Shown here: positions 35,742 through 56,416 of the stretch, piece after piece
Numbering within the stretch: the first letter of the stretch is position 1
Layout of the letters: each line of letters begins with the position of its first letter
Virus record (IMG/VR): IMGVR_UViG_3300029922_000015
Location: 85,935-149,934 of that record
Length of the DNA stretch: 64,000 nt
Reading direction: 5' to 3' (one strand)
DNA from: a virus
Notes under the pieces: model-generated
Told to the model about the DNA's origin: nothing
The model's database searches: none
What the model saw: the letters and a program-made list of their open reading frames with translations, nothing else
Translations under genes and position numbers: made by a program

Positions 35742-35776
35742 GGGATATAGGCGGGAGTAACTAACGCCTATATTTT
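35742..35776 (+). promoter_or_regulatory. GRRGTRACTAA-loop hairpin (copy 1), possibly also a terminator
   Basis: atataggcg-GGAGTAACTAA-cgcctatat followed by a T-run. Confidence 0.6.
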
Positions 35777-38235
35777 CCGTAAAATTACTTGATTTTTCGC
35801 TCAAGTAGTGCTATAATCTCTTCATGCGTAAAACTAAAAGTTTAGGCCGAATTACCGATTTGGGTTATTCGGTTTACCAGAGCGATGATAGATGGTCGCT
35901 CGAAAAGAATGGTAAAGCCTGTGATGTCGCGCCTTGTGGCGCTACGCAATCCCAAGCCGTCAAACAGTTTATGGATTACCTTAGAATAAAATAATTATGA
36001 AAGTTGAAATTGCAAATCGAGAGTTTTTTATTGATGCGTTGCGTAAGGCTCGGACAAAGGCTGTCGCGAAAGCTAAAAGTGATCTGAAATTCTATCAAGA
36101 TAATCTAGCCGATAAAAAAGCTAAGGCGAAGAAATGGTTTTCGGGCGTTGGCGATTGGGAAGTTAGGTTTGGCGAGTCATACGTTCAAGACGCGGTTAAT
36201 GCCGTTACGGACTCAGAAAAGCTTTTGTCGCATCTCGAAACCGTTTTGCTCAGCAAGAATACGGGAACGGTTTACTTGGAAAACGAAGAAATTACCCTGC
36301 TAGCTCCATTTATTAAGTAACCTATGGAGATTACAGGACGATATGCTCCCAATGAAAATAGTTTGCGCAATCAATCTATTTTCTATCTAAACAATGGGGT
36401 TAAAGCTACTGTCGAAGAAACGGCGGTGTTAGGTCGCATAATCGTTCAACTTGAAGACGGTTTGGGGTATTGGACTAATCTGAATGGGTTGAAAAATCTG
36501 CCCTTACGCTTTCAATTCGCTAGGGCTTGGGAAGATAAAGATAAGAATGTTTTGCGTCCATTGTTTTCAAGAATCTATCCTAATCCCGGTTGCGAAGGAC
36601 TTATGCTCGCGGGCGAAGTGCGCGATTTGTATCGGGGTCGAGAATGGATTGAATAATGAATGTCGAACCTCCTATAACAAAATCTATTTCCAAAAAACAG
36701 TTACTTAAGGAATCAATCGATAAAAGAGATTCCATTGCGCGTTTTAAGATCGGGCTGACTGTTATGTCTTTTCAAGAATTAGATGAATCGGAGATGAGTT
36801 TTCTGAAAATTCCTTTAATAATGAAAAGCTTGGACGATTGGCTGGATTTTTTGAACGAACAAGTCGAAAAAGGTATTGACAAGTCATAAACCGTATAATA
36901 CAATTATCGCATGGCTAGAATTATAGTTTATATTATGATGACCGCCTCTTGGATTATGATCGTCGGCGGCGCGATTATAATGCTTGTCAGTTGTGGTTTT
37001 TGTATCAAAGATATTCTATATGTGCTCACCAGACTCTAAACAATTCTATCTGAATTATTGCGCGGGATTGGTTGTTTTAGACCCGATTGGCGAAGATATT
37101 TACTTTTTTGAGCCTTGCATTAAGCATAAGAACGCAACAATCTTTAGTATCAATATGATTTTGGGATTTTATGAGCGATGGAAAGGCGTGCCCGAGATAA
37201 TCAATTCTCTTCGCGTTTTTAATATGCCAATTGAATTGTTTATTCAGCAATTAAAATAAATTTGACAAACAAGAGTTGGTTTCCGATTAACGCTCGCAAA
37301 ATCGTCTGTGATCAAGGAACATAGAGCAATCTATTAATCATTAAAAAGTGGCGTGGGAGAAAATTCGTAGCATTTTCGTTTGTACCACTAAACTCTGTAG
37401 ATAAAGAATTCCTTTCATCCAAGAAAATAACAGGAATCGATATCAAAATGTCCAAAGTTGAGATGGAGATTCAATAATGACCGCGAGCCTTGTTTGTTCA
37501 GATTGCCAAGAAAAGGTTATTGAAACGATGGTCGGCAAGCCCGCATCTAAAGCTTTCTATTGTCCGTTTTGTGATGATTTTGTCAGACCTAAAAAGAGCT
37601 TGACATCGAACGAAACCGAACCTATAAAGGAATAATGGCTGATAATTATTTTATGGTTTACCGAGCGAAACCTCCCTTTGAGGTATTTAAAGGGGTGCGG
37701 TTTGGGCGCGTTGATTACGCTGGTGCTTCGCACAATCAACAAGATTGCGAGCGATTAGTTACGGCTTTGAACGGCGGCAAACCTAGGGGTTTTAAAGCCA
37801 ACGTCACTAGCGCGGCGCTCAAGATTCTCCAAAAGAACTTGGAGAACGTTTTGTTTGAGCCCGCGAAGGTATTTCCGCCCGATGGCATCGCAAAGATTCC
37901 CGATGTTTTTACCGTGACTTACGATTCGCTTATTGATGAATTGCAGGAGGTTTACACATGATTATTGTTATAGTAATGTTGGTTATTATTAACATCGCAT
38001 TCGTTTTGTTGGTAAGTGAAAGCCAGAGCGAGGTAAAGCATTTGAAGGCATTGAACGAATCTTATAAAGATTATAATCAAATTTGGCGCGATTTAGCTGA
38101 GCAACGATTAGATACCATCGCGAAAAGAAACTTTGAAATTGTTAAATTAATTAGAAAGTTGCAAAAATATGGATTGGATAAAGAAAAGTGAAAATTTCTC
38201 TTGACACGACATAAATCGTATGCGATGATGTTATC

Positions 38236-38467
38236 CACACGCTAGACAAAAGGAGAATCCATCATGAAGTAAACTAACATCATTATAAGCAACGGTTAAG
38301 AGATTATGAGATTGTAGGCAGTAACTTAAAGAACTAGATAAGGATACAATGAAGCCTCCGTAGCTATAAAACAAATTTAAGATTAAAGATAGAGTATAAT
38401 GAAAAGTTAGTTGGTTAGTTGTTGAGACGCGCTGTTGGAATTCCGAGCCAATGGCGCGTCTCTTGTT
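38236..38467 (+). ncRNA. candidate small RNA carrying an SD-ATG-AAG-TAA minigene
   Basis: Promoter 38201, long-range stem aactaac..tcattata/tataatga..gttagtt, 15-bp terminal hairpin 38424-38462. Confidence 0.5.
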
Positions 38468-40296
38468 AAAGAAATTTATGGATAGTGTTTATCAAATTTT
38501 AGACGTGGAATTTAATCGCAAGAATGGATTTCGCAAGGGGATAGGCCAATATTTTCGAGTCGCGCCTCAATATGCTCACGTTCTAGTGGTTCAAGCGCAA
38601 TCGGCGCACGGTCGCATCTATAATGATTGGGCCGAATTTAAGGCGGATAACGAAAGTAGTTTTAATTAAAATTTTATGCCCAAAACTTCGCTGTCCCTAA
38701 TTAAAAGGATTGGCGAGTTTCGGGCTCTCTTTAGAAAACAATAATGAATAATCCAAACCCTCAATATTATGTGGCTGTTGCTCAAGCGGATATCGGATTT
38801 ACGTTGAAGATCATTGTAAATCTAACAACGAGAACTGCGAGGATTTTTTCTTTAGAACAAGCTGTCAAAGAATGTCGGGCGCAACAACGGTCGGGCGTTG
38901 TCGCAACTTATCTTCCGGTTGTATAATATGAATGATCTTGCTAAATCATTAGAGAAGCTAATCAAGATGATAGGCGAAAAGACTTGGGTTGATGGATATG
39001 AACTTAGATCGGGAATTCACGGAGATGAAGTTTGGGCTAATAAACAAGAAGCCAGCGATTTCTTTGAAGCCGAAAAGAATTTAAAAGATTATCTTGACAA
39101 TCAATAGATCGTATATTATTATAACGATATGGAAAATGCTTCCCTTCTTAATGCCAGCGATAAGAGATGGCTTCCGTCTTTTCAAGAAACGGCTGAGCGT
39201 TTGGGCGTCGAATATCAAATCTCAATCGAGCCTTACGAGGATAATTATAATCTAACTATTCGTTTTGAGTTGAATGGTATGAAGCACACAGAAGTTAATT
39301 TCAAGCAGGCTACCGAAGAACTGGAAGATTGGGCCGATGGATATCATTCGCGTAAGATTGAAGCAGAAGCCTATCGGCGAGATGAGCTAGAAGCGTTTGG
39401 CGATATGGCAAGCGAATTCGCTGAGCCCGAACCAGAACATCCCGAATTTTAATTTATGAGCTTAAAAAGAGACATAAAAAAAGTTTATCGCAAGGTAAAA
39501 CGCGCAATAAAAAAGGTAGATAATCAAAACTCTTTGGAGTTTGCTTTGCTGAAACTTCAATTGCGTAATTTGGAAAGGATGATGTAATGCGAAACATTCC
39601 CCGATTTGTTTGTAGTTTGCTTAATCACGATTATATACGGATAGACTACAATTCTAAACATCATCGTCATATCGAGCTTTGTAAATGTTGCGGCGATAGG
39701 CGCATCTCCATGAATTTCAGCGAGTTAATTAAAATGGATTTGACGCCAAAGAATTAGCTTGACATCTTCTTAATTTAAGGTTATTCTAATTTTAACATGA
39801 ATCTTATTGTTTGGCTTTGTCTGTTTCCGATTTGTTGGTCGCTTTGTAATTTTATTGACGCTCTTCGTTATACAATTATAGGCGTCGAAGTGGATAATAA
39901 AAGCACCTATGCTATAGCGGTCGGAATTGACGTGTTGATTTTTTTCGTAATTTATTTCACTGTGGCTTTTCATCTAGCATGAAACAATTTCTAGTCATTC
40001 AAAACAAGGAAAAGTATCCTTGGCTCAAGGGACATAAATCGCCGCCGGACGAATACCAAACGCCTTCGATTGGCGTTTACGTTCCTCAGTGGAAAGAATA
40101 TTTGCTTAGAGTTGACGGCTCGGACGAAGAATATCGCACGCAGGAACAAATTGAAGAGAAATACGGGGAAACACATACTGTTTTTTATTTTGATTCCCTA
40201 ACGGAATTAGCCAAAGAATTTATAACGCAAGGTTGGAAAGAATACGTTGACGATAAAGCAAACGATTTTAATATTACGCATCAAGATTAATAAAAT

Positions 40297-41019
40297 ATGA
40301 GCACATTCAAAGCCGTGGGAATTGAAATTGAAGGGGGATGGAAGAACGTAGAACGAGTAGCTAAATGGTTTAAAAGCGATTCGAGCGCCGTTGTGCCGGG
40401 GTATCAACATGTTCATAATCTTCATAAAGGGGATTACTTGATCAATCCTCCTAAAACGCCTGTTAGCGGAGAAGTTAATAGCGAGCCTTATGCTCAAACA
40501 GGCTCATTACACAGTTGGATTGAACGCGCTCATCCCGATGGCGTAGCCGACACTTGCGGCGTTCACATTCATACTTCTTTTAATACTTTGACGGATTATG
40601 CTAAGATTATGACGGAAACGTTTTATAATCGCCTAACTGCCCGTATGATGCGTTTTGGGAATGAAGAGGTAAACGGTAAGGATGCGGCGGAAACATCGTT
40701 CTGGCGGCGTTTTTGGGGTTTTAACGGCTATTCTCAGCGCGGGTTCGTCCATGTTCTTTATGGAAATAAGAATTGGGGCGTTAATTACGGAGCTTTTAGA
40801 GGGGATAACGAAGGGCTTCGTAAATATAAAACGTTTGAAATGAGAATCTTTCCTTCGTTTGCGCGGGCCGAAACAACGCACAAAGGGGTCGAAGCTTATC
40901 TCGAAGTGATTAACGAAACCTTAAACGAGCACCCGCCTTTTCAGCCAGAGATTGAAGTGGCTTTGAAAAATCTAAAAGGTTTACATTCCGATGTAGCTAG
41001 GTTGATTCCCGAAAAATAA
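40297..41019 (+). CDS. putative amidoligase 8
   Basis: GIEIEG, SDSSAV, GEVNS, CGVHIHTS, TFEMRIF. Confidence 0.82.
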   Translation: MSTFKAVGIEIEGGWKNVERVAKWFKSDSSAVVPGYQHVHNLHKGDYLINPPKTPVSGEVNSEPYAQTGSLHSWIERAHPDGVADTCGVHIHTSFNTLTDYAKIMTETFYNRLTARMMRFGNEEVNGKDAAETSFWRRFWGFNGYSQRGFVHVLYGNKNWGVNYGAFRGDNEGLRKYKTFEMRIFPSFARAETTHKGVEAYLEVINETLNEHPPFQPEIEVALKNLKGLHSDVARLIPEK

Positions 41020-42093
41020 ACAAATGAACGTACTAATTAATATCGAGCGTAATAAACAAACTATCGAAGTCTCTGTTGAATATTACAGGGATAGCGATAA
41101 GGTTGACGATTACGGCTACGATAAGGACGGAAAAGATTACGAATTAACGACGGCGGAAAAGTATCGCGCGGTTAATGCTATTTATATGGGGAAATAATAA
41201 TTAATCTCAATCAATGAAACTCAAGTATGGTTTAAAGAAACTCGATAAGAAAATAGAGTTTCAAATTTTTGAGCAAACGGAATTGTTTCGTAAAACAAAA
41301 GATACTAATACTCTTATATTTAATGCATCTAACGGACTTCAAATCATGTCGGCGAGCCATGTCGAAATGGCGTCTGGCGCAATCTGTTTGCGCGGCCAAG
41401 AAAAATGTTACGATAATACAGTGGCCATGCGCCCTTTTAATAATAATGTAGAACGGGATATATATTATCTAAAGATGCAGTACGCTTTGCTTGAATGGGC
41501 GCGAAGTGCGCCAGCGTTACGAGCTATTCCAGAAAATTCCGCCGAAGTTGAAAGCGGTGATATTTTTATACTAAAATGAAATACAAAGAGACAGGCGAAA
41601 ATCTCCTAGATCGACTAGAACGGGAAAAGCGCGAACGTAAGTTTGTTAAGACCGAAAAGAAACGGCGCAAGAAAGCAGGATTGCCAACGTCGTTTTTTTA
41701 TTGCTAAAATGAAATCTAAATACAGAATTGTCCCTAAACTTGATCTTTGGGGAGCTGAAGCTTGGATTATTCAAAGACGCGTTTTAGGTTTCTTTTGGAT
41801 AGAGATTAGCGACTCTCATTATCTCAGCAAAGCCCGCGAAACTATTCGACATCTTTTGCAGAAGCCGGAATATTTCAAATAATTTGATTGACAAGCCATG
41901 AATCATAATATATTATGATATCGTGATTACCACTACTTATAATTTCCTCGCCCGATGGGCGGACAAAGACAATCGCTATATCGCTAAACGTTGGTGGAAG
42001 TTCAGCGAGCGCAATTGGATTCGAACCTGTTGGAATATGCGTCATATTTCTTATCCTCGTAATAAGGGTTCGCGCTGTTATCCTTATTAATTT

Positions 42094-42372
42094 ATGAAAA
42101 TCATTGTCACTCAACACGATATAAATCTAGGTCAACGACGCAGTGCTGATTTTTGTCCTGTCGCTTTAGCGGCTACAAGAGCTTTTGGCGAAAAAATCCT
42201 CGTAACTCCTAAACGTTTGTGGAATAGCGGATCAAAAATGAGTATCGGATCAAGGTCTAAATCGGTTTTTTTGCCTAAAAAAGCAATGGATTTTATTATT
42301 AATTTTGATTCATTCAAACAAGTTGAACCTTTTGAATTTGAAGTCGGTAAATTGGATACCGATCCAGTATGA
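42094..42372 (+). CDS. tandem paralogue pair 1
   Basis: MKIIVTQHDI...CPVALA...LPKKA...PFEFEV. Confidence 0.7.
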   Translation: MKIIVTQHDINLGQRRSADFCPVALAATRAFGEKILVTPKRLWNSGSKMSIGSRSKSVFLPKKAMDFIINFDSFKQVEPFEFEVGKLDTDPV

Positions 42373-42608
42373 AAATTATTGTAACCGAACAAGATATTCG
42401 GATCGGCAATAAAGCCGATTGCAATTTTTGCCCTATTGCTTTAGCCGGGCAACGCGCTCTTGGGCGTCCGGTTACGGTATCTTGCTACAATATTTATGGC
42501 GGTAGGAATGATCGTTATCCGCTACCAAAGAAAGCGCAAGAATTTATTTGTTTATTTGATAAAGGTGAAAAAGTCGGGCCTTTCGAGTTTGAAGTTTTTC
42601 AGTTTTAG
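42369..42608 (+). CDS. tandem paralogue pair 2
   Basis: MKIIVTEQDI...CPIALA...LPKKA...PFEFEV. Confidence 0.7.
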   Translation: MKIIVTEQDIRIGNKADCNFCPIALAGQRALGRPVTVSCYNIYGGRNDRYPLPKKAQEFICLFDKGEKVGPFEFEVFQF

Positions 42609-42646
42609 TTGTTGACAAGGCGCGAATCGTATAATAATATCTGTTC

Positions 42647-43000
42647 ATGCTCTACACTATCGCTCAAATCAAGGAAAAAATCGCTACTAGCGACGCATGG
42701 CTTCTCCGGGGACTTTTGGCAATTTACGCCAGACAGACCGAAAACGAGCAAGCCTCGGATTCCACCCGCGAAGATAACGGGATTGGATTTAACGGTTATG
42801 ATGCTCCCTTTTTGTCTAGTTTGGTAAAGGGTTATCAGCGATATAATCGTCTCACGCCTCGCCAAGTTCAGGCTTGCCGCAAGTGCATGATGAAATATGC
42901 GGGCCAGCTTACGGTGATTGCTAATCAAAAGGCGTTGACGGTTCAGCCTTCCACGGTTCAGCCCGAACATACCGAAGAGGAGATGGCGCAAGCTATCTAA
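42647..43000 (+). CDS. phage hypothetical protein
   Basis: RQTENEQ...NGIGFNGYDAPFLSS...LTPRQ...KYAGQL. Confidence 0.7.
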   Translation: MLYTIAQIKEKIATSDAWLLRGLLAIYARQTENEQASDSTREDNGIGFNGYDAPFLSSLVKGYQRYNRLTPRQVQACRKCMMKYAGQLTVIANQKALTVQPSTVQPEHTEEEMAQAI

Positions 43001-43012
43001 ATAAACAAAATT

Positions 43013-43387
43013 ATGCCACTTGATTTCTTACCTTTTCATTGGGACGGCGGAAACAATTCAACGTCACTTGAGTTTAATGATTTGCCGCGCGAATGTATCG
43101 ATGATTGTTCGCATTCTGGAAGTTGCGATGCGGATGTCCAACATTGGCGCAAAAGCCTAAATTTCAGTGTAAATCGTGAAATGGCAATGCGTTATCTCAT
43201 TTCAACGGGCGGATGGGACAAAGATGATTTGCGCGATCATTCGGACGAAGATTTGGCCGAAAAGATTCTTTGGCTGGCGTGCGGAACGTTTAAAGATTAT
43301 TTGGCAGAGTGCGAAAGTAAGGAACTTGATCCTTTAGAGTCTCCCGAAACAAATTGCGGGTCGTCTTTTTTTACTCTTGAAGCATGA
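43013..43387 (+). CDS. hypothetical protein, paralogue of 30347..30697
   Basis: See 30347..30697. Confidence 0.7.
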   Translation: MPLDFLPFHWDGGNNSTSLEFNDLPRECIDDCSHSGSCDADVQHWRKSLNFSVNREMAMRYLISTGGWDKDDLRDHSDEDLAEKILWLACGTFKDYLAECESKELDPLESPETNCGSSFFTLEA

Positions 43388-44990
43388 AAACCAAACTCTC
43401 TTTTATTATTCAAGAAAAGAAAACGCCGCGCCAGCTTTGGACGGATACGATTTTTCATTCGGGCGAGTATAGTCTCGCTCATTTGAACGAACTTTTAACC
43501 TCGTGGCGCAAGGGCAAAGGACTTGAATTTCGCCTAATCGAACGCATAACCCGAATTGAAGAGAACGTAATAGCATGACTATCATTAAAATCAATGTTTT
43601 TGTTAGTCAATTAATTAAGAATCCTGAAGCTATCATAGAAGCCAATGCAATAAGCAACCATAAATTAGAGATGGGATGGATTAAGGTTTCTCCCTTGAAT
43701 GGTTTTCTTTTTGATTATATGGATTATCGAATTGTCGCGCCGCGCGATTTAGAAAGATAATTCTTGACAACGCCTAAATCATAGTTTATTATACTAATAT
43801 GCCTACTGACTATCTAACTCCTTCGCAGATTGGCGAGCATATCTTTATCGGGATTATGTTCGTAGGTTTTTTCACGAAACTCGTGCGTCGCTTTACTGAG
43901 TAAACAAATGAACCTTTTTATTCAAGTTTTCTCAATTGTTCTCGGGAGTATATTGATTGGAATTTACGCACATTCCATCATTCTAGCTCTTGGAATTTTA
44001 CTTTTAGTTATCGCTACTCAAACCGCCTCTAATTAATCTTATGTGGCCTACAAACTCTAATGGTTGTAATAAAACTATGGCTCAAATGACTCCGCGCGAA
44101 CGCGAGCAAGTGTTTGCCGAAGCCTTGCGCCGAGCGGGTAAAACTAACTCCAAAGGCAAATGAACAAATTTGTTTTCACATTTCAAGAAGTTGGTGAACT
44201 TCATGGCGGCGGCTCGATTCGTATCGGTACTTGCGAATGCGATAACGAACTAAAAGCTAATGCTCATGCGCGGCGAATCGTTATCGATCAAGGATATCAA
44301 AGCGTCAAGGTTCAATCGCTAGAAGAATGGTATGAAGAAAGACATTTGTAAATACTGAAAAAAGAAAAATCTATGACTTTAAATTTACTCATTGATCGAC
44401 TTATCAATTTAAAAAACGAGGGTAACGGAGAAAGAGAAGTTTACCTTTACGATGGAGAATGGGCAGCTTTCTTTCCTGTAGCTGAAGTAGACACAGAAGG
44501 AGACAACGGAATTCTTATTACCGATAGTTGTTCTTTGAATGATAAAAAAGAAACGGTATGAAAGCTAATCCCGCTCTTGATATTACGCCATACGATTATA
44601 ATAACGCCGAGAACGCTATTAAGAAGGGCAAAGTCGCGCGGCTGACTTTTAAGCAAGTCCGCCCTAATCATTTGACGGTTGTTAAGATTAATATCATCAA
44701 AGACTTATGATTTTAGAAATTCGCAAAAACGGAGATTGCTATATTGATGATAATATAGTTTATCGCATTGGTATAAACGAAATAATGAAAGCGGGCGATT
44801 ACATTATACATCCCGAATCTAGAGATAGGATTGATTTTGTTATTCCCAAAGGCGGCTATTGGGATGGCGTACCTTGCGATGAGCTTTGCGAAAAAGTCCC
44901 TGTTTATCGTAAGATTGCTTTTAAAGACTTAGAAGTATAATTATCTTGACAAGTGATGAATTATGTTATAAAATCATAAAAACTAACTAT

Positions 44991-45392
44991 ATGAAAATTT
45001 ACATTCTTACCTCCGGTTCTTATTCTGATTATCGCATTGAAGGAGTATTTACCGATAAATCTATCGCGGAAAGTATGACTAAAAATTTTTACGATGCGGA
45101 AGTAGAAGAATTTGATTCAGACCCTATAAACCTGAATACTCTAGAAGCTTTTAAGGAATGGAATTTCTTTTTTGTTTCGTTCGATGATAATGGGGAAATT
45201 TTTCAATCCTATCTGAACTATCCCGGCTTTAATGATTATCATCGTAATTTTCGATTTTGCACTCATGGCGCGGTCAAAAACGGAAATAAAATAACCGTGC
45301 ATGATCTATCGGTATGGGCGAAGGATCAAGAACACGCAATAAAGATTGCCGCTGAGAAATTTGCCCAATTTAAGCTTGGATTTAACTATTAA
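44991..45392 (+). CDS. phage hypothetical protein
   Basis: ATG 44991; MKIYILTSGSYSDYRIEGVF...VWAKDQEHAIKIA. Confidence 0.65.
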   Translation: MKIYILTSGSYSDYRIEGVFTDKSIAESMTKNFYDAEVEEFDSDPINLNTLEAFKEWNFFFVSFDDNGEIFQSYLNYPGFNDYHRNFRFCTHGAVKNGNKITVHDLSVWAKDQEHAIKIAAEKFAQFKLGFNY

Positions 45393-45614
45393 ATGAACAT
45401 ATCTGATTATCTTATTATTGGCGGGTTTATTATCTGCTATCTAACTATCGGGCAAGACATTCGAGAGGTTTGGCGGGAAATTCCGAAACAGAGGCGTTAT
45501 GGAATACTATTGATGAGTTTAGGGGCGCTTCTCGTAGTAATAGGCGCAATTGGCTTGAAATCTATTTTTAATTTTCTCATTGACACGCCATAAATCCTAA
45601 CCTAAACTCATTTT

Positions 45615-45821
45615 ATGAAAACTATGATTATCGCTCTCCTATTGGCGAGCATTGTGTTGGCGCGGGCTGATTCCATTACGATTACGTTGAAAACCGGACA
45701 GGTTTACGAAAACGTTAACGTTGTCAGCGAAACGAAGGATTTTATCACCATCGAACTTCCCGATGGTAAGCAAAAGAATTTCAATAAGCGGTCGATTCAA
45801 AGCACGCATTACGGAATGTGA
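45615..45821 (+). CDS. small exported protein
   Basis: Signal peptide MKTMIIALLLASIVLARA-D. Confidence 0.7.
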   Translation: MKTMIIALLLASIVLARADSITITLKTGQVYENVNVVSETKDFITIELPDGKQKNFNKRSIQSTHYGM

Positions 45822-45825
45822 TTTT

Positions 45826-45850
45826 TAAATGGGAAGTAACTAACCTTTTA
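45826..45850 (+). promoter_or_regulatory. GRRGTRACTAA-loop hairpin (copy 2)
   Basis: taaatgg-GAAGTAACTAA-cctttta, intergenic if the next gene starts at ATG 45857. Confidence 0.5.
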
Positions 45851-46154
45851 TTATTAATGAAATACAAATACGTTATTGTCGAACCGGGCGATAAGTTACA
45901 GCGTGGCGACGAATATTATGTAAATGGCGGTTGGTTTGGAATGCCCAACGACCATATTGGCAAAGCTCCTACGATGATGGCTCGCCGTAAGCTTGTTAAT
46001 ACTGATATTTACGATACGGGTTTTCATGACGGAGCGCAGGCGCAACAATATCGTATCAATCACTTCTTAGACGAATTCAATTCGGATAGTCCATCTGCTG
46101 AATATACTAAGCTAGAACGCTTTAAAAATATCTGATCGGGCAAACCATAAAATT

Positions 46155-46541
46155 ATGATTAATAAAGAAAATATTCGTAAGTGGGTTGATGCATTGCGTA
46201 GTGGGCGTTTTACTCAAGGGATAGGATGTTTAAAGCGATTTAATGAAAATAAACATAAATACACGCATTGTTGTCTTGGTGTCGCTTGCGAAGTGGCCGA
46301 AGAATCCGGGGTGTCTCTTTCTATTGTAGATCAAAGCTATTTCGTGTTTGATGACGAGACGGCTTTACTTCCTTTTAAAGTTATTAAGTGGCTTGGGGTG
46401 GAGTGCGGCGATCCTTTGATTAAAGCGAAGCCGGGAGATAAATTATCTGACGGGGAAACTAGTTGTATTGATGCAAACGATACTCTCAAATATACTTTTG
46501 ATGAAATCGCCGATGGGATTGAAAAGAAATATCTGAAGTAA
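46155..46541 (+). CDS. phage hypothetical protein
   Basis: WVDALRSGRFTQGIGCL...CCLGVAC...NDTLKYTFDEIAD. Confidence 0.7.
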   Translation: MINKENIRKWVDALRSGRFTQGIGCLKRFNENKHKYTHCCLGVACEVAEESGVSLSIVDQSYFVFDDETALLPFKVIKWLGVECGDPLIKAKPGDKLSDGETSCIDANDTLKYTFDEIADGIEKKYLK

Positions 46542-46587
46542 TAACAAATTACTTGACATGCGATGAATCATGGTTTATTATAAGATC

Positions 46588-46938
46588 ATGGACGCTAACG
46601 AAATCAAAAACGGTTTACGGAATTTTTACGGTACGGAAAGCTATACAAAGTACATGGGCGGAATTCTTTTGACGGATGGCGTCAAATGGCTTGCCGATAA
46701 CGCCAAGTGCTATTGGCTGTTAGATATCCTTTGGTCGATTAAGAATATGCCGAAGGTTAAGCGAGAAGAATTTCTTACTATCGATCTGAAAGTTAAGGAT
46801 CAAAAGGCGGTTTTCACCGCTGGCGACGGTAACGACAATATTGTTTATAAGCAAACTATCGGATATACCGATTTTCCTTTAGACGAAATCCGGTTGTTTT
46901 TCTGCAATAACGTGCTCATGCTCACAAGCGAATATTGA
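46588..46938 (+). CDS. DUF6876-like protein
   Basis: FYGTESY...LTDGVKWLADNAKCYWLLD...YTDFPLDEI...LMLTSEY; start 35 nt after TTGACA 46553. Confidence 0.7.
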   Translation: MDANEIKNGLRNFYGTESYTKYMGGILLTDGVKWLADNAKCYWLLDILWSIKNMPKVKREEFLTIDLKVKDQKAVFTAGDGNDNIVYKQTIGYTDFPLDEIRLFFCNNVLMLTSEY

Positions 46939-47916
46939 AATGATTACTTTAACATCTACCTCTAACGAAGTAATACGCAAGGCTCTAAGCGAGCGTGTTA
47001 GAAATTTGGAAAACACCTATATTAATCGCAAAGGAATGATGCGGCGCGATACTAACTATATTCAAACGCAAGCAATGCTAAATATGTTTAATCGCGAAGA
47101 TAACGAAATTCAAATCAAAGTTAAATACGTGGCCTAATTATGCACAAAGCTCTCATTACAATTCACAATCCCACGGCGCGCGAGCCCATTACGGAATTTA
47201 TCTATTGGAGTAATATGGATGGTTATTTGTCTGAAATAACGCGCCTAATCAAAGCTAAGGGCGGTTATTGCTCCACTTACGAAATTAGTTATCAAGGAAA
47301 GGTTTGATATTATGAAATATCAAATTGTTTCCCCCGTCAAAGCTCTCAATACGTTTGATGATGTTAAGATTGGCCAAGCCTTTATGGCGAATGGTATGAA
47401 CAAGTATTTAAAAATTTCGGAACATTATGGTTTTAACATGGAAAGTAATAAGGTTGTTTATTTTGGTTATTTAGAATCTGTTACCCAGATTTTTCGTAAT
47501 CCCGAAATTTTGTTGAAGGATTAATTTATGCCCGTCTATATTATTCAACTTAAAAAAGGGGAAATATGGACGCCTTTTTATAATGGAGTTCATGGTAAAG
47601 ATAAAGAATTTACCGATATAGATGAATGTCTAAAATACGTTGAAGAACTTACCCAACGTTTTAAAGCTTTAAAACCCGAATATCGGCCAATGATAAAGCT
47701 TGGGCCAAAAAAATATCGTCCTTTAGATTTAGAAGTATAATATGATTAAATTTTTGTGGAAATATTATCACATAAGCCTTTGGTGTGCTTATTGTTATGT
47801 TTGGTGTCCCATTAAAAATTACGGGGATAAGTTTTTTAATAATGCCGATTTAATTGCCAGAGAATTTGTTAGAAAAAATTCTTGACATCGCATGGATCAT
47901 AAAGTAATATTATAAC

Positions 47917-48135
47917 ATGATCACCAAAGAAATCGCCATTGCCCTTCGCGGTCGCACGGTTTTGCACCATGTCACGAAAAAGAACTCTGATAATACGCCG
48001 ATGCGCGTGCGCGTCAATGGCAAGTGCAAGACTTGGGTAACTCGCCCGAACGAGTTCCGCTTGCCTGTTAAATATGGTCTGTATGAGTGTGGATATATTG
48101 ACCAAGACAATGCCGCAAGTTTCGTTGTAGCCTAA
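47917..48135 (+). CDS. phage hypothetical protein
   Basis: RVNGKCKTWVTRPNEFRLPVKYGLY. Confidence 0.65.
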   Translation: MITKEIAIALRGRTVLHHVTKKNSDNTPMRVRVNGKCKTWVTRPNEFRLPVKYGLYECGYIDQDNAASFVVA

Positions 48136-49400
48136 TCTAATAAAATTTATGAAATTTAAGCAAGTAAAATGCAAATCCGGTTTGATGGGCGAGCAATTCA
48201 AATTGCGCGATAGTTATAATAATAATTTCGCTGAATTTGAAGGTTATTCAAATATGTATGGCATTGCCAAGCGTCTAGGCTATAAAACAAATAAAGGCGC
48301 ATGGAGGGCGAATCCTACGGTTCAATGCTCTACTAATCCTAGAGATTTCATTAAAGTATGAACAAATTTATTATTGAAGTTGACGTGGGTAATACTTTTA
48401 AATATTTCGCTGCACAAGGAACGCGCGAGTCGGTAGAAAAGCTTGTGGAAGAGCGAAAAGAACGGTTAGCCCGTTTGTCGTTAACTTATAAAATTTATTC
48501 CTTAGAAGAATACTGGAATAAATTAGGCAAAGCAGAATAATAAAGAAATCTCTTGACAGGGAATGAATCTGGTTATAATATAAAAGTATGACAAAAGAAA
48601 AAGAACTGGCGATTTTGGATGAGGCGGTTGCGAAGCTCGGCAAGGATTCTTACCTGTTTCCCTTCTTTACCGAAGCCCGCGCGGAAGCGGAACTCGAATC
48701 AATTCAATCTTAATAAACAAACATGAACGCAATTACCGCAACGCATGACGCGCAACAAACAAAGGAAATTCTAAACACGATTGGATATTTTTGCAATTTG
48801 CCCAAAGATGGTGAAATGTTCAATGTGCCGATAGCACAAGCGCCGCAAGCTTTCCATGAGCGCATCAAGGGGCGTAAAACGTGCAATCTTGTTAAGCGTG
48901 GACAGAAATACGTTTTTACCTTTCGTTAATAAACAAATTATGGAATTTTATAAATACGGTAAGATGGGCGCGGTTCCATTGCGCAAACACAAAATTTTTC
49001 GTTATGTGCAATTTAAGTTTATAGGCAAATGGTGGCCTATCAAAGAAGCAACTTGGCTTTCTAAAGAAGATTTCAAAAATATAGAATTTAAGTAAAGAAT
49101 TAGCTTGACATGGGATGTCAACTTGGATTTTGTTTACCCTAGCGATTTTAATAATTAATATGGACTTATCTATTGCTGAAATTGATTTGTTGAGAATTCT
49201 TGTCGAAAAACGACGCGAAGCATCGGGAGGTACAAACAATTTTCTTAAAAATCTATCTAATAAACTTGGGCGAGAGCGTGATGTTAAAGTAAACACATTA
49301 ATTCCACAATGGACAGAGGAGGAAAGGATTGCGTTTGAGCATCTTGGATTTTTCGATAAAATTCCTTGACTTTGTTATAATCGTGTGGTAATATCATAAT

Positions 49401-49673
49401 ATGAAGCTAATTCCCCTCGGGCCGAGTGCTCACGTTCTTGAGATTCAAATTGCGAGTGTTCTCTATCGCATTCTCTTTTCTTACGAGACTGTGGTAATGA
49501 TCGCGAAGGATGAAGCGCCTTGCATCGAAATTCATTCGAGCGCCCGATTTTATAGCAATACAACGAAACGCCAAGCAACGATTTTTCTTGAAAAATACTA
49601 TCCTAATAGTATCGTTCAATCTGCGACACAAGATTTTATGAATAATTATTTTGTCGAACTGTCTAATCTGTAA
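49401..49673 (+). CDS. phage hypothetical protein
   Basis: LFSYETVV...YSNTTKRQ. Confidence 0.6.
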   Translation: MKLIPLGPSAHVLEIQIASVLYRILFSYETVVMIAKDEAPCIEIHSSARFYSNTTKRQATIFLEKYYPNSIVQSATQDFMNNYFVELSNL

Positions 49674-51767
49674 TTTTATGAATAAAACATGGCAAGATAA
49701 GTTGGAAAAATGCGTGCTATTTGATGAAGGTCAAGAAGATAAAGACCTTATGTTTTCGCGCCTTCTCAAGGGTTTGCCTAAGCTCATGGATGATTATGCA
49801 TCCGCCGTCTTGAATGATAAGAAATTGCAAGAGAGTTTATTGGTATGAAACTAACCGAATATATCAAGCGTTTGCAGGAATTGGAAAAGGAAGGATATGG
49901 CAATTATCGAGTTGCTTATTTCGAGCAGCATGTTTCGTTTGACGCTGAAAATCCTTACGAAGATAAAGACGAAGATGGAGAAAAAGTAATTTATATTAAC
50001 TAAGCGCATGATTTTCGATTTAAGTGAAATCGCCTTCGAACAATCTAATAACGTTAAACCGGGCTGGATTGAAGAAGAAGAACAAAAATTGCGCCAACAA
50101 ATGAAAACGCAATCCGCGCCGTCGTCTGTCTTGGAGAATCGCAAGGAATTTTTGGAACAATTTAAGGAAAACTAATGACCGCTTATCAAAAACTAATTAA
50201 AGAAAAGCGAAAAGTAGAGCAACTTCTTTGGAAAAAGAAATGCGCACTTTGGAAAGAAAAATATCCTAATGGGTGTTTTCGTGTGGGGGTTCTTCGCCAA
50301 GACTATTATCAAGTAAGAGATGGCGACTTGAAGAATATTATTCTGTTAGGCATTAGTTTCGATAGAAATAATTGTGGGGATGGATTTCATATTTCTAAAG
50401 TAATTGACGGAAAGAATAAAGTCACTTTCAAAGTTGAATACGGGCGCATAATCTTTTTGGATTTCGTAGGCAGAAATTATGCTTACGATACCTTGAATAA
50501 GGCCAAGCTTAAGCTTGATAAATCAGGCGCAAATGAGCTTGGAGAGCTTTTTGATAAGTGGTACGCGCTTTATAATCGGTATAAGAATAAGAAAAGCTTT
50601 TGGGAAAAGTATATGGGCGAGCCTTGCAAGTCTGAATATAATAGTTCTTTTGAAGTATAATCGCTTTAGAAAATGAATTAGAAAAGAAATCAAAATATGT
50701 TTCCATCTAAAACTAAACTAAAACGTAGGGCTCAATTGATTCGCATGTCCGAATCCGAAGAATGGTTTCGCGCTAAATCTTTGGAAAAAGTACAAAAGGA
50801 ATTTCCTCGTGATCAAGTAAGACGAATCGGGCCGAATACTATTCTTATCAGCAAAAAGAAAAGAAATGAAAAAACTTAGATTTGATAAAGATTATCAAGA
50901 ATGGTACGAAGTTGATTAAAATATGATTTACTTTCTAAAAGGCTTACTTAAAATAGCCATTATTTTCTCAACGACAATGCCAGCAATGGTTATTCTTTCC
51001 CCTTGTTTGGCAATACATATTATTAGAATAATTGGAGGCGATGATAACGAAAAACCCGCATTCGATAGATGGTATGATTGGTGGCTTAATAATGTTACTT
51101 TTAAGCTATTAGCAATGTGCGGAATTAAGCCATGAATAAACCAACCGATGAAGAATTAGGTCAAATGGCTTTTGCGGCATTTCGTTCTGATGGGAATTTC
51201 GTTTGGAAATATCTAGGCGATAAAGATCGCTGGATTAAAGTAGGAAAAACACTTTATGAGTTTGGATTCTTTCTAGGCGCGGAATATAAAGAAAAGAAAT
51301 GAATTTGATTTATCTATTTCTAATTTATATCCTAATTGGCATTCCTTTCGGTTTAAGCGTGATAATCTATCAAAAAGAATATGAATTGCGCTTGTATGGT
51401 CTTTATGTAATAATTTGGCCGGTTATCTTATTTGCTATAATTTTACCTTAAAATATGAGAACTTTCGATCAAGAAAATGGATTAAATTCTAATCAAGCCG
51501 ATACTGAATTTTGTGGCGATTTACCTAACGGGGATATAATGATTTCTTGTATGGCGTGTGGAAATGAACAACCAGCGCCTTATAATATACCGATAGGAAC
51601 TCCCGAATTTTGTTCTAAATGTGGCAAAGAGCTTATGTATTGCATTAGGAATTCTTGGTAAGCATTCCTTTCGCCACTTTCCTTGCCCATTTTATTAGCC
51701 AACTAAACGGCTAAATATTGCGCCTATTTAGTGTGGAAAAACTGTGCCTAAATCGGTATAATTAAGA

Positions 51768-52310
51768 ATGCAAGTAAGAGCAATTTTTGATGGTGAAATT
51801 TTCCACGAAGTCTTATTTGATGATGAAGATTTAGATTTCTTTAATAATCATAGTTGGTATGTTTCTCGTCAAGGATATTTAATTACAAGTATTCCTAAAT
51901 GCGTTACGATTAAACGTAAAGGATTCAAAGTCAGAAGATACAAGCGTCGAACTTTGATGCTATTCCATCGTAAAGTAATGGGGATTACAGACAATACTGT
52001 TTCTACGGATCATATCGATCATAATAAGCTTAATAATCAAAAGTCTAATTTGCGAGTATGTTCAGCCCGAACGAATGCGTATAATACAAGAAAATGTAAA
52101 GCGCCTCGTTCTTCGCGTTTTAAAGGCGTGAGTTTTTGTAATACTCGTAAGCTTTTTCGAGCTAATATCAAGATCAATAATACAATAAAACATCTTGGTT
52201 ATTTTGATGATGAAGTATGTGCCGCAAAGGTATATGATAAAGCAGCCCATACATACTTTGAAGGATATGCTTATTTAAATTTTCCTAATGATGTAAATGA
52301 TTATGATTAA
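51768..52310 (+). CDS. HNH-AP2 homing endonuclease
   Basis: DHIDHNKLNNQKSNLR (HNH_3) plus SRFKGVS...HLGYFDDEVCAAKVYDKAA...AYLNFP (AP2). Confidence 0.93.
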   Translation: MQVRAIFDGEIFHEVLFDDEDLDFFNNHSWYVSRQGYLITSIPKCVTIKRKGFKVRRYKRRTLMLFHRKVMGITDNTVSTDHIDHNKLNNQKSNLRVCSARTNAYNTRKCKAPRSSRFKGVSFCNTRKLFRANIKINNTIKHLGYFDDEVCAAKVYDKAAHTYFEGYAYLNFPNDVNDYD

Positions 52311-52422
52311 GTAAGTTATCTATTATAAAGATGTTTAAAAGCTCTGCATTATTTTATTATCTTCAATTGATAATAAAAATAAATTCATTGACAGATAACA
52401 AATCATCCCTTATAAACAAACC

Positions 52423-52563
52423 ATGAAGAATCAATCGCGCCTCAATTATTTCATTCACCAATGGGCATTGTCTGTTTTGGCCTATGGTAATACGGTATCA
52501 AATCGCTGGAATTGGATTATCACGCGCGAATTGAATGAAGTTCTTTCATCTAACGATAATTAA
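52423..52563 (+). CDS. 46-aa peptide
   Basis: Promoter 52388; resembles 52591..52731 (MKN....Y....WA..V.A...I..EL). Confidence 0.55.
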   Translation: MKNQSRLNYFIHQWALSVLAYGNTVSNRWNWIITRELNEVLSSNDN

Positions 52564-52590
52564 ATAAATAATTCGTGTAAAATAGGATTG

Positions 52591-52731
52591 ATGAAACGCA
52601 TTATGAAAAACAAAAATCACTTTCGCTTTTATGTTACTATGTGGGCTAATCATGTCATTGCGCAACGCCCGAAGATGAGTTATTTTTATGTCAATTGCAT
52701 TTCAAAAGAGCTTGATAATCTAGCGAAATAA
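52591..52731 (+). CDS. small peptide, paralogue of 52423..52563
   Basis: Manual translation MKRIMKNKNHFRFYVTMWANHVIAQRPKMSYFYVNCISKELDNLAK. Confidence 0.5.
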   Translation: MKRIMKNKNHFRFYVTMWANHVIAQRPKMSYFYVNCISKELDNLAK

Positions 52732-52778
52732 TAGTAAATAACGTTAATTTATATATTATTTGGATGTATAATTGATGG

Positions 52779-52876
52779 ATTCGAACGAAAATGGCTTAAA
52801 TAACAAAGGCCCAAAATTCGAACGAAAAAGCTCTAAATAAGACCCTCCTGAATTCGAACGATTTTTTGCTAAATAA
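52779..52876 (+). repeat. three bipartite direct repeats ATTCGAACGA-N8-TAAATAA
   Basis: Units at 52779, 52816 and 52852 (period 37 and 36 nt). Confidence 0.9.
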
Positions 52877-53370
52877 GAGCCGCCGCGCGTCGCGATGTCG
52901 AACCCGGGGCAACTGTTCAGCCGCGTGAACAAAACCCGCTGCGGGCTTTAGCGTTACAGCTTAATTGTTTATATTTGCTAATATTTAGCCGACCGGATCG
53001 CCACGTTGACTTATAGGGCATTTTGTTTGTTAGCTTTTAAGCGGGCAATTTCTTTTGTAAGTAATTGTTATTATAATTAATTAAAACTATTTTTTTAAAA
53101 GCGTGCGCTATGGTCGTACTAGTCGCTAGGTCTAATCGTTTCTAGACCTATTTGCGCTCGATTGTGCTATGGATAGCTTTTGACCACTTTGTATAAAAAA
53201 AGCCAGTTAGATTACAAGTTTATTTATTAAACAAATTGGCATGGAACTTTCCTTAGCGGCTTATTCCGCATTGCCTTATATAAGGCGCAAACAAACAAAC
53301 TAACAAACAAGTTTATTATATTATCGTTGCAAGGGTTTATAACTTATTTGCAATTTTATAAAAAATTCGC

Positions 53371-53399
53371 TTGCTTGCCTGTAGCTTATGCCTTACTCT
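53371..53399 (+). promoter_or_regulatory. sigma70-like promoter for the large RNA/RuvB unit
   Basis: TTGCTT-17-TACTCT; predicted +1 at 53406 coincides with the 5' arm of the closing stem. Confidence 0.55.
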
Positions 53400-53405
53400 A
53401 GCAAC

Positions 53406-53806
53406 GTTGGTCGAACGCTAGGCGCTGGCAAAAAACAAAAGCGCGGTGAGCTAACCTGATAGCACGTATCTGCAACGGAAAAGCACTGGTAAACTTTTAG
53501 AGTTTATCACGATGGTAAAACGGTAAACTTTACCACTCGCAAGAGAGTATGCGTCAATTAATGTGAGACAAGCTAGAGTGGCAAGCTAAAGACTCTAGAC
53601 AGGTCATTAAGTAGCGCAAAGGGCAATGCGATATTCGAAACAGGCTAGCGAGGCGGTCAAATCTCGCTAGCCTCTAGTTTCCAGCTAGGGCAATTGCAAT
53701 CTTGCGTCTCCCCTTTACCTTTTTTACTCTCATTAAATTAATCGCGAAAAAGAGAGTAGAGAGGGAAACACAAGAGATTGTCTTAGCTAGAGATTAGATA
53801 ACCAAC
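53406..53806 (+). ncRNA. candidate ~400-nt highly structured RNA
   Basis: GTTGGT/ACCAAC closing stem and multiple 7-11-bp helices; no ORF. Confidence 0.6.
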
Positions 53807-53824
53807 AAACGAAAGGAAAACATC

Positions 53825-53995
53825 ATGTCACAACGCATTGCACTCCATATTGCTTGCATCTATTGCAAGCCTCGCACGTTCACATTTCACGCTAAAGGCA
53901 TCATGCGCGAAATTGATTCCCTATCACTCGCCGTCAAAGTCATCATCTCGCAAGCGATTGTTATTCTATCGCTGGCGGTAATGGCTTTGTTTTAG
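53825..53995 (+). CDS. 56-aa peptide with hydrophobic C-terminus
   Basis: GAAAGG SD-like element; MSQRIALHIACIYCKPR...VIISQAIVILSLAVMALF. Confidence 0.5.
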   Translation: MSQRIALHIACIYCKPRTFTFHAKGIMREIDSLSLAVKVIISQAIVILSLAVMALF

Positions 53996-54080
53996 TCAGA
54001 TTTCAGCCTAGTCTAATCCGCTAGGCTGTAGTCTGGTAAAAACGCCAGAAACAAACAAACAACTAACGAAAGAAACAACT

Positions 54081-55073
54081 ATGAAGTTCACCAAAGAATA
54101 TATCGGACAACAGGAGTTTTGCCGGATGTCGGAAAACGTTTGCAATGCCGTCGCGGAAGAGCGGAACATCCCGCTTCCCTGCCTTGGCTTTGTTGGCTAT
54201 GCCGGACTAGGCAAGACTAACGCGGCGGAAATGCTTGCCAAATGGCTTAAGCAGGCAAGCGAGGGACAAGCGAATGCCCTTGGCGAACGCGACGAATTCA
54301 ATTATGTCGAAATCAACGCGGCAACCACGCTTCCTAACTTGATCAATATGCTTGTGGAGATTGAACACAAGCGCGTTTTGATCTTTGTTGACGAAGCGCA
54401 CGCTTTGTCGAAGAAAGTGCTTAATTTCCTTAAGCCCATTCTTGAGCTTGGCAACGCAATGACGAAAGAAATCCGTCACGGCGACTTTCGCTTCACCGTT
54501 GACCGCAAGCGGCACCTGTGGATATTTGCCAGCAACGAGAACTTGCTCGATTCCGCAATCTTTGGATCAACGGGTCGCGCAACGTCTATTCAATTCGTGC
54601 CTTACTCGCGCAAGGAGGTTATTGATCTTATCAAATTCAAAGCTTCCTTTTGGGCGAAGGAATTCAAGATCACGCCGGAAGCGATTGAATACCTCGCAGA
54701 TCGCGTTTTGCCTAATGGTCGCGCGGTGGATCATCTCGTAAAAGATGAATGCATGTACTCCGGCCCGACTATCACGGTTGAAAAGGCCAAGGAAATGTGC
54801 AAGACGTACAAGCGTTTCCCCGGCGGTCTTTGCGTCAACGACATCAAAACGCTTCGCTTTCTCGGCATCGATGCCAACGGAAAGCAGGTCAATGAAATCT
54901 CTTCTCATTGCGGAGGCGAGCCGAGTAAGGAAACGTCGTATCGCCTGCAATGGCTTGCCGGGCTTGGCTACGTTGACACTAAGGCGGGTAAGAAGCGCCT
55001 CACTCCCCCCGGCGCGAAATACCTCGCGGACTTGGAAGCTAAGCAAAAGGCCAAGAAAGCAGCAACTCGCTAG
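54081..55073 (+). CDS. ruvB: RuvB-like AAA+ ATPase (Holliday junction helicase homologue)
   Basis: EYIGQ, Walker A GYAGLGKT, Walker B IFVDEAH, C-terminal wHTH GL...D...L...GYV....R.LTPPGAKYL; 330 aa, the size of RuvB. Confidence 0.78.
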   Translation: MKFTKEYIGQQEFCRMSENVCNAVAEERNIPLPCLGFVGYAGLGKTNAAEMLAKWLKQASEGQANALGERDEFNYVEINAATTLPNLINMLVEIEHKRVLIFVDEAHALSKKVLNFLKPILELGNAMTKEIRHGDFRFTVDRKRHLWIFASNENLLDSAIFGSTGRATSIQFVPYSRKEVIDLIKFKASFWAKEFKITPEAIEYLADRVLPNGRAVDHLVKDECMYSGPTITVEKAKEMCKTYKRFPGGLCVNDIKTLRFLGIDANGKQVNEISSHCGGEPSKETSYRLQWLAGLGYVDTKAGKKRLTPPGAKYLADLEAKQKAKKAATR

Positions 55074-55081
55074 GCAATCTA

Positions 55082-55113
55082 GAGTTAGCCGGAAGTAACT
55101 AACGGCGAAACTC
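55082..55113 (+). promoter_or_regulatory. GRRGTRACTAA-loop hairpin (copy 3)
   Basis: gagtt-a-gccg-GAAGTAACTAA-cggc-ga-aactc. Confidence 0.6.
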
Positions 55114-55129
55114 GCAACCTAACAAACTA

Positions 55130-55555
55130 ATGAATCTTAACTTAAATCTCACCTTGTCGGTCATTATCGGTAAGGACATGACGCAAGCGCAAGCGGATAA
55201 TGCCGCAATCATCGCAGAATCGCTCGTAGCGCGTTTTGAAGCTAAGTATGGTCGCACCGTAGCGCCTAGCGTACAAGTCGCGTCTAATGGCAACGCAGAC
55301 GCCAACAAGGCTTATTTGCAAAGCCAAGGTCGCAACCGCACGCCAGTATCCACCGATACCGAGCTTGCCTTGCGCTCCAAGGTGGAAACTCCGATTGATT
55401 GGAGCAACCTGCAATCGCGGCATGAGGCATTGCGGGCGCTTGGTTATGACATCTTTGACCTTAACCGCGACAAGGTGTTTGCGAATGGCGCAACGCGCGG
55501 CGATATCGGCGCAACGTTTAATGGTGACGTATCCACCGAGGACATACCGGACTAG
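55130..55555 (+). CDS. hypothetical protein
   Basis: 141 aa, co-oriented with ruvB, A/C-rich leader. Confidence 0.7.
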   Translation: MNLNLNLTLSVIIGKDMTQAQADNAAIIAESLVARFEAKYGRTVAPSVQVASNGNADANKAYLQSQGRNRTPVSTDTELALRSKVETPIDWSNLQSRHEALRALGYDIFDLNRDKVFANGATRGDIGATFNGDVSTEDIPD

Positions 55556-55636
55556 ACCGCTATGCTTCTCACCGTCATCTCTTGTCTCTTGTTATTCTCA
55601 TTCATCACAACGCAACGTTAGTAAACACAATCACAT

Positions 55637-56056
55637 ATGCAAAACATCATTAATCGAATCACTGGCGCATCTATCGCGCTTCACCCGTCGGGCAATCGTC
55701 TTAAGTTGGTTATCGAAGGTACCTCAAGCCAAGTGGAGCAAGCGACTAACTTGCTCTATAACTTCCACGCAATTACAGAGTTGCCGGAATGGTATGAGCC
55801 TAGCTTTACCTATTGCGAATTCTTTGTGACGCGTAAGCATTTCATTCGCGGATTGCTGGCGCTTTGCCTGTATCATGGCACCAGCGAGCGCGACAAGGCC
55901 AAGGGTCGCATTGCAAGCGGATTTGCCAAGTGTGTCCAAGCTGTCATTGGTACGGCGCACTACTTCAAAGCCATCACGGTACAGCCTCAGAGCAAGCCTA
56001 GCGAGTTCATTTGCGCGTTGTCTGACTTGTCGGACGCCGAGCCGATGGCAATCTAA
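55637..56056 (+). CDS. hypothetical protein, paralogue of 16697..17059
   Basis: See 16697..17059. Confidence 0.7.
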   Translation: MQNIINRITGASIALHPSGNRLKLVIEGTSSQVEQATNLLYNFHAITELPEWYEPSFTYCEFFVTRKHFIRGLLALCLYHGTSERDKAKGRIASGFAKCVQAVIGTAHYFKAITVQPQSKPSEFICALSDLSDAEPMAI

Positions 56057-56068
56057 ACAAACAAACAA

Positions 56069-56100
56069 ACACGCGCGGAGGTGACTAACGCGCATTGTGT
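56069..56100 (+). promoter_or_regulatory. GRRGTRACTAA-loop hairpin (copy 4)
   Basis: acac-gcgcg-GAGGTGACTAA-cgcgc-att-gtgt. Confidence 0.6.
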
Positions 56101-56103
56101 CTT

Positions 56104-56250
56104 ATGAATAAAGTTAGAATCTATTGGACAGATGGCATGCTTTTTGATATGTGCACGAAAGGGCTTTCCTTAGCGCCCATTATCCAAACGCTAGAGCGAA
56201 GGATCGCGAGGGGTGAGATTATAGGATATGTTATTAATCCGATTGCCTGA
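56104..56250 (+). CDS. 48-aa peptide
   Basis: Manual translation MNKVRIYWTDGMLFDMCTKG... Confidence 0.45.
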   Translation: MNKVRIYWTDGMLFDMCTKGLSLAPIIQTLERRIARGEIIGYVINPIA

Positions 56251-56416
56251 CCATCTAACGCGGGGAAAGGTTGCCGTGGCTAAACGATTCAAGCGCGGCA
56301 TCCTACCCCTTTTTCCAATCATTCACATGGCTAAAGCTTCGCGCGCGCCGGGGGGCGCCTAGTTTTATTATCCCAAGCGATTTAGTTAGAACCCTTTACA
56401 TACATATTCTGAATTT

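Follow-up and report, generated by a model that had tools for sequence, protein, structure and literature searches.

Introduction

In lambdoid phages, N antitermination relies on the boxB element of the nut sites, a short sense-strand RNA hairpin that is recognised through its loop, lies in the untranslated spacer just past an early gene and varies in loop type among related phages. boxB, with a 5-bp stem and a loop of 5-6 nt, is found once in each early operon and functions only together with boxA and a cognate phage protein. Intercistronic stabilising hairpins (REP-type elements and 3' retroregulators) and the partial terminators after capsid genes are also found directly past stop codons within operons, and for these a stable stem suffices. 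The Mu-gpT-DE RNA motif of Rfam is a conserved RNA located downstream of Mu gpT-like capsid genes. The nearest described intergenic repeats of phages are the PeSL composite terminator-promoter motifs of T4-like phages and the SAS/ESAS elements (PMC4122927, PMC3203893). Here, we analyzed a hairpin with a conserved 11-nt loop that is present four times (s1 to s4) in a stretch of 64,000 nt, referred to as the window, from the 149,934-bp virus record IMGVR_UViG_3300029922_000015; the other loci examined are designated by L-numbers.

The hairpin resembles boxB in the first set of traits listed above. It differs in its 11-nt loop, in the lack of a boxA that could be seen by eye and in being present also after late or structural genes of unrelated phages. 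With stabilising hairpins and partial terminators it shares the position, including one after a major capsid gene, and the expected effect on the ratio of upstream to downstream expression; to our knowledge, none of these elements has a loop of 11 nt that is kept in unrelated phages. One hairpin of locus L090 follows a Mu gpT-like gene, as Mu-gpT-DE does, but Rfam yielded nothing at that locus even at E up to 10, and most copies follow other genes. Like PeSLs, the hairpins are repeated intergenic stem-loops amid small variable genes with an association with gene shuffling, and a near-consensus sigma-70 promoter stands directly after s1 and after the first copy of L022 (PMC4122927). In contrast, PeSLs are defined by a promoter and a conserved stem; the hairpins described here are not PeSLs, as only those two copies are followed by a promoter, the stems differ between copies and the loop is conserved instead. 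The SAS/ESAS repeats of Cluster K mycobacteriophages are likewise short, phage-specific, biased in orientation, of unknown function and upstream of unrelated genes, and both they and the hairpin contain a purine run resembling a Shine-Dalgarno site. However, SAS/ESAS are a conserved 13-bp sequence located 3-7 bp from the start codon, where they occupy the ribosome-binding site (PMC3203893), whereas the hairpin tracks the upstream stop codon, its loop lies 13-57 nt from the start in the window and its relatives, and separate Shine-Dalgarno sites are present in other phages.

Results

Four hairpins of the window share an 11-nt loop

The first-pass annotation of the window had described four intergenic hairpins with the loop pattern GRRGTRACTAA and dissimilar stems. 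All four were seen at the positions it had given (Table 1), on the + coding strand, after a stop codon and with a loop closed by a G-C pair. The pattern is matched four times in the window for 0.21 matches expected, always on the + strand and between genes, and none of 100 shuffled versions of the window reached four. The search of the whole record that the annotation had proposed added a single match, an intragenic one on the - strand that lacks a stem; apart from it the loop was not found outside stems, and it is kept in some related phages, so that the element withstood the refuting test set by the annotation.

In the four copies the closing G lies 10-29 nt past the stop codon, and the stem sequences differ yet pair: 91.7% of the stem cells are paired, compared to 67.6% upon shuffling and 25-39% upon sliding of the partner column. 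With a covariance model of s1-s4, these four were the only copies recovered in 154 kb of this genome. The next match had an E of 0.5; it is located at genome positions 60876-60892 on the + strand (L009 876-892), has A-U and not G-C as its inner pair, is antisense inside a gene and is probably due to chance.

Table 1. Positions in the window of the four hairpins and of the promoter that follows the first one.
Feature	Position	Strand	Description
Hairpin s1	35742..35776	+	Loop 35754-35764; 9 Watson-Crick and 3 G-U pairs; U-run on the 3' side; covariance-model E 5e-8
Promoter after s1	35789..35826	+	Sigma-70-like, TTGATT, 17-nt spacer, TATAAT; start codon 6 nt past the -10 box (leaderless)
Hairpin s2	45826..45850	+	Loop 45833-45843; weak stem, 6/7 pairs; covariance-model E 3.8e-7
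Hairpin s3	55082..55113	+	Loop 55092-55102; 4 bp, a mismatch, then further pairs; between the AAA/RuvB-like gene (54081-55073) and the gene at 55130
Hairpin s4	56069..56100	+	Loop 56078-56088; 5-bp G/C stem and outer 4-bp helix; between the gene at 55637-56056 and the ATG at 56104

The stability of the hairpins varies. RNA folding gave -17.9 kcal/mol for s1 (z -4.75), -12.8 kcal/mol for s3 (z -2.72) and -12.2 kcal/mol for s4 (z -1.76). For s2, which begins 4 nt past the stop at 45821 and ends 6 nt ahead of the ATG at 45857, the value was -2.5 kcal/mol (z +0.52), which by nearest-neighbour energy is no stable hairpin. At three of the four sites the loop was predicted to fold alike, with two unpaired purines, a mini-helix of 2 bp, a triloop and two unpaired A. 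In this prediction the unpaired bases form an internal loop of 2x2 that is rich in purines, the mini-helix consists of A-U or G-U followed by G-C, and the triloop is U-N-A.

No complementary partner, either a kissing loop or a small RNA, was found in the genome, and no paralogy was found among the genes flanking the window hairpins. Neither the window nor any of 12 hairpin-bearing loci matched an Rfam 15 family at the gathering score, and there was no match at E up to 5-10 around s3, s4 and two L090 copies either.

Compensatory changes in relatives of the AAA ATPase locus

Homologues of the AAA gene that precedes s3 were found on metagenomic contigs, with 40-94% identity. In L015 (94% identity) a hairpin is present at the position of s3, with one C-G pair changed to G-C. 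In L017 (56%) the hairpin following the AAA gene is the same as s4 of the window at 25 of 25 positions, and the outer helices of the two covary. L021 and L022 (42% and 40%) have longer stems, small changes in the loop and a swap of U-A against C-G between the two; L022 carries a second copy after a Band_7 gene. The annotation had taken stems that vary with pairing kept as a sign of a structural element, and these compensatory changes, together with the 23 distinct covarying copies described below, bear it out.

The distribution is patchy. In the tree of the AAA proteins the first (11-nt) loop class is found in two separate clades, and in one further lineage there is no spacer at all after the AAA gene. 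Six related lineages carry a different hairpin at the place syntenic with s3 (L016 1250-1285, L018 3095-3120, L020 5955-5985, L031, L032 and L033). This second hairpin class is present once per locus and absent from the window; its loop of 7 nt, U Y C Y A H C, is closed by G-C and resembles the T-loop of tRNA.

The genes adjoining s1 and s2 had homologues only in identical strains, and thus gave no information on covariation; the sequence of s1 was found unchanged in three further samples. In relatives identified through DnaE (42-46% identity) the motif was not present; one of the matches they gave was intragenic, and another was antisense within a methyltransferase gene. In this methyltransferase gene of a distant relative (L025 1501-1525; G003:170744-170768) the antisense sequence is a near copy of s2, flanks included, with 24 of 25 positions the same, and may be due to chance or be a relic.

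Copies with unrelated stems in IMG/VR

IMG/VR was scanned for exact matches to a 15-base core composed of the loop and its two closing pairs, which gave 66 matches in 63 stretches. At least 4 further consecutive flanking pairs were present in 19 of the 66 (about 12 distinct contexts), for about 2% expected. The stems of these 19 copies are all different, and their contigs range from 34 to 56% GC. The hairpins are on the strand of the flanking genes and the core starts mostly 7-22 nt past the upstream stop codon, usually TAA. The next gene follows at a distance of 1 to over 100 nt, often with a Shine-Dalgarno site of its own between hairpin and start. Further copies, with U in the middle of the triloop (loop position 6), were detected by the covariance model in the same contigs, and one to four copies were seen per contig. 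U-rich tails are present in about a third of the copies, and G-U pairs were observed in s1, L021, L022 and the inner pair of s4.

Taken over 28 matches (23 distinct), 93.2% of the stem cells are paired, compared to 65.3% after shuffling and 30-54% after sliding; as the IMG/VR copies in this count had been chosen for having stems, the unbiased test is the enrichment of 19 in 66 only. In the same set, 59 cells have changed on both sides and several stem positions include all four Watson-Crick pair types. Nearly all of the 23 distinct copies are 5-22 nt past a stop codon of the same strand.

The genes upstream of the hairpins encode a Mu gpT-like capsid protein (L090), a protease-capsid fusion, two DUF932 proteins, the AAA ATPase, Band_7 and unknowns. 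In the examined loci, of at most about 15 kb each, neither a protein family common to the hairpin-bearing loci nor a recombinase or endonuclease consistently near the hairpins was found. The exact 19-nt core of s4 was present in L037, a phage-like contig of 58% GC, between unrelated genes, at distances of 22 nt from the preceding stop and 11 nt from the following start. The other exact matches to this core (two of the three in metagenomes and all those in bacterial genomes) are in coding sequences of high GC and were set aside as probable chance matches.

Combined, these comparisons support an RNA stem-loop of the sense strand. Its stem, of about 4-12 bp and closed by G-C, varies from copy to copy, whereas the 11 nt of the loop (G R R G U N A C U A A) hardly change. 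The comparisons also support its placement in the untranslated spacer just past stop codons and its use as a portable module by many unrelated phages. The strand bias, the position after stop codons and the G-U pairs favour an RNA over a double-stranded DNA site. The loop is not the ribosome-binding site, as in phages using Shine-Dalgarno sites the downstream genes have their own.

Three other accounts were considered and rejected. Conservation of the loop for out-of-frame stop codons was ruled out because loop position 6 can be U. A frame-locked recoding signal was ruled out because the copies keep no fixed phase with the upstream stop: by a hand count, 8 of 18 were in phase. A REP- or MITE-like repeated palindrome would have a stem shared by descent, and the stems carry all four pair types.

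In L090 (9382-10026), L102 (11403-11683) and the window (55085-56095), one or two small genes stand between two hairpins, which looks like a cassette; the bracketed gene encodes 186 aa and follows the capsid gene in L090, and encodes 66 aa in L102. s3 and s4 share 9 nt just upstream (window 55074-55082 and 56048-56056), which form the end of the coding region at s4 and are just past the stop codon at s3, and the genes after s3, s4, L017 and L037 all start with ATGAAT. These short shared flanks suggest that the hairpin moves together with them.

Genome setting and translation style

The record is a fragment, about 75% complete, of an uncultured phage encoding a tape measure protein of 2,440 aa and a DnaE-type polymerase. 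No close cultured relative was found and no GenBank phage gave a near DNA match. The region from about 6 to 56 kb of the window is an array of small genes on the + strand. Shine-Dalgarno-like motifs are scarcely enriched in this genome (62 of 287 starts for a background of 16%). At 20 sigma-70-like promoters of the + strand (window 7351-51762) the start codon is exactly 6 nt past the -10 hexamer, so that the first gene of most early operons seems to be leaderless; most of the remaining genes are coupled to the preceding gene. A promoter with a leaderless start comes directly after s1, which places this hairpin where the transcription unit before it ends. In L022 (1576-1629) the hairpin following the AAA gene is succeeded by a TTGATA-TAGAAT promoter with a 17-nt spacer and a start codon 6 nt on, the layout observed at s1; this promoter is not present in the sister contig L021.

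s3 and s4 sit in a segment of 50% GC (window 52877-56360) that contains the AAA/RuvB-like gene. This segment is preceded by about 1.5 kb without open reading frames, and its gene order (a small open reading frame, the AAA/RuvB-like gene and two genes of about 140 aa) is kept across many metagenomic contigs. A very arginine-rich protein of 64 aa, with a stretch like those of RNA-binding peptides, is encoded at window 18983-19177; it matched no Pfam or PHROG family and had no homologue in the other hairpin-bearing loci.

Discussion

From the motif, the pairing, the strand, the position and the spread observed above, we infer a factor that reads the loop, and propose an identity and an outcome for it. 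Tentatively, and judging from sequence comparisons, the most likely function of the hairpin is to set the expression dosage between cistrons, by a host-read structure acting on transcript ends or stability. On nascent or processed mRNA, the hairpin would fold and present its structured loop to a conserved component of the host that reads it. Candidates for this reader are the RNA polymerase during transcription, together with NusA, and a factor of RNA processing or decay. At the hairpin, a fraction of the transcripts would pause and end, or would gain protection from 3' decay; the upstream gene would thereby be expressed above the downstream gene. A host factor, or an intrinsic property of the hairpin, is favoured because the examined loci have no phage protein in common. 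Two observations count in favour of this dosage function: s1 and the first L022 copy end a transcription unit, just before a promoter with a leaderless start, and some copies have U-rich tails.

Several points weigh against it. As most copies are devoid of a U-tract and s2 is thermodynamically marginal, a simple terminator or an exonuclease block fails to explain all copies. A purely structural role would need no conserved 11-nt loop. The covariation count was drawn in part from copies selected for their stems, as described above. Lastly, the loop-binding factor is putative, and the idea of NusA comes from a similarity that a literature search did not confirm: the loop may resemble an RNA reported to be bound by the KH domains of NusA, and word searches for the loop sequence and for the NusA-bound 11-mer returned nothing relevant. 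The loop may also resemble the UAA/GAN internal-loop motif.

A bolder proposal, which we hold to be rather unlikely, is that the hairpin represents a new class of portable phage cis-regulatory RNA whose loop docks on a universal host machine, either the ribosome or the RNA polymerase with NusA, the T-loop-like class being an interchangeable alternative at the same position. By placing it behind a gene, any phage would then be able to adjust expression at that boundary. The loop has a 7-mer plus AC in common with the loop of 23S helix 69, the sequence of which was confirmed in E. coli rrlH; however, by chance 63 of 200 shuffled versions of that rrlH stretch also contained the 7-mer alone.

Control of the translation of the downstream cistron is an unlikely function. 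The hairpin would be an operator occluding initiation, or would be opened by the ribosome terminating upstream, which would make the downstream gene dependent on the upstream one. The stem ends 6-10 nt ahead of the start codon in s2, s4, L017 and L037, the spacing from the 5-bp stem to the start is 10 nt in all three s4-type copies, and the outer helix of s4, which covaries with that of L017, extends to position -4. Moreover, as the phage of the window uses leaderless and coupled translation, its uncoupled internal genes need another route of initiation. However, the distance to the next start varies widely among the copies, the downstream genes of other phages have Shine-Dalgarno sites of their own, and at s1 and the first L022 copy the next gene is separated from the hairpin by a promoter giving a leaderless mRNA.

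An element acting at the DNA level, either a PeSL-like junction for the recombinational shuffling of gene cassettes or a hairpin signal in single-stranded DNA, is decidedly unlikely. It would account for the presence of s4 in a different gene context in L017 and of its core in L037, for the pairs of copies flanking one or two small genes (s3 and s4 in the window, L090, L102), for the patchy distribution on the AAA tree and for the hairpin-then-promoter layout of s1, which is PeSL-like (PMC4122927). However, PeSL copies retain the stem sequence whereas the stems of the hairpin differ and covary, G-U pairs and the strict sense-strand placement after stop codons favour RNA, and no recombinase or endonuclease was consistently nearby in the examined loci.

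The annotation had proposed a protein-binding RNA element, such as a boxB/nut-like site. The structural RNA part of this proposal stood, and the boxB/nut part fits poorly; processing, stabilisation or attenuation may be the role instead. For such a site, an arginine-rich phage protein would bind the loop on the nascent RNA and the polymerase would become resistant to termination. A hairpin with a conserved loop just past a stop codon in early operons would fit, as would the 64-aa arginine-rich protein encoded in the window and the second loop class at the same place in related phages, which resembles a swap of specificity. However, the loop has 11 nt with a predicted internal mini-helix and is not a GNRA-like pentaloop, two copies are found within one operon, and no shared boxA was visible in the 5' flanks when these were inspected by eye, no pattern search having been made. 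The identical loop also occurs after capsid genes in unrelated phages whose loci have no protein in common, and the arginine-rich protein belongs to no known family and has no homologue in these loci; combined, this makes a boxB/nut-like site very unlikely.

Ordinary intrinsic terminators or generic stabilising hairpins, with loops alike only through common descent or chance, are suggested by the classic look of s1 and by the U-rich tails of about a third of the copies, but are highly improbable, as the loop stays invariant despite a complete turnover of the stems among phages of 34-56% GC without shared genes, the other terminators of the window have unrelated loops, a stable G+C-rich stem with an immediate U-tract is seen in s1 only and not in s2-s4 or most IMG/VR copies, and a terminator scan of the window listed none of s1-s4.

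If the proposed setting of dosage by a host-read hairpin is true, an RNA module of about 25 nt with a fixed loop would be common to many unrelated, mostly uncultured phages and would have been missed by the catalogues of RNA families. It would represent a common and so far unrecognised way to set gene dosage within phage operons, probably through a conserved host factor, and may be usable as a compact part to tune expression inside operons.

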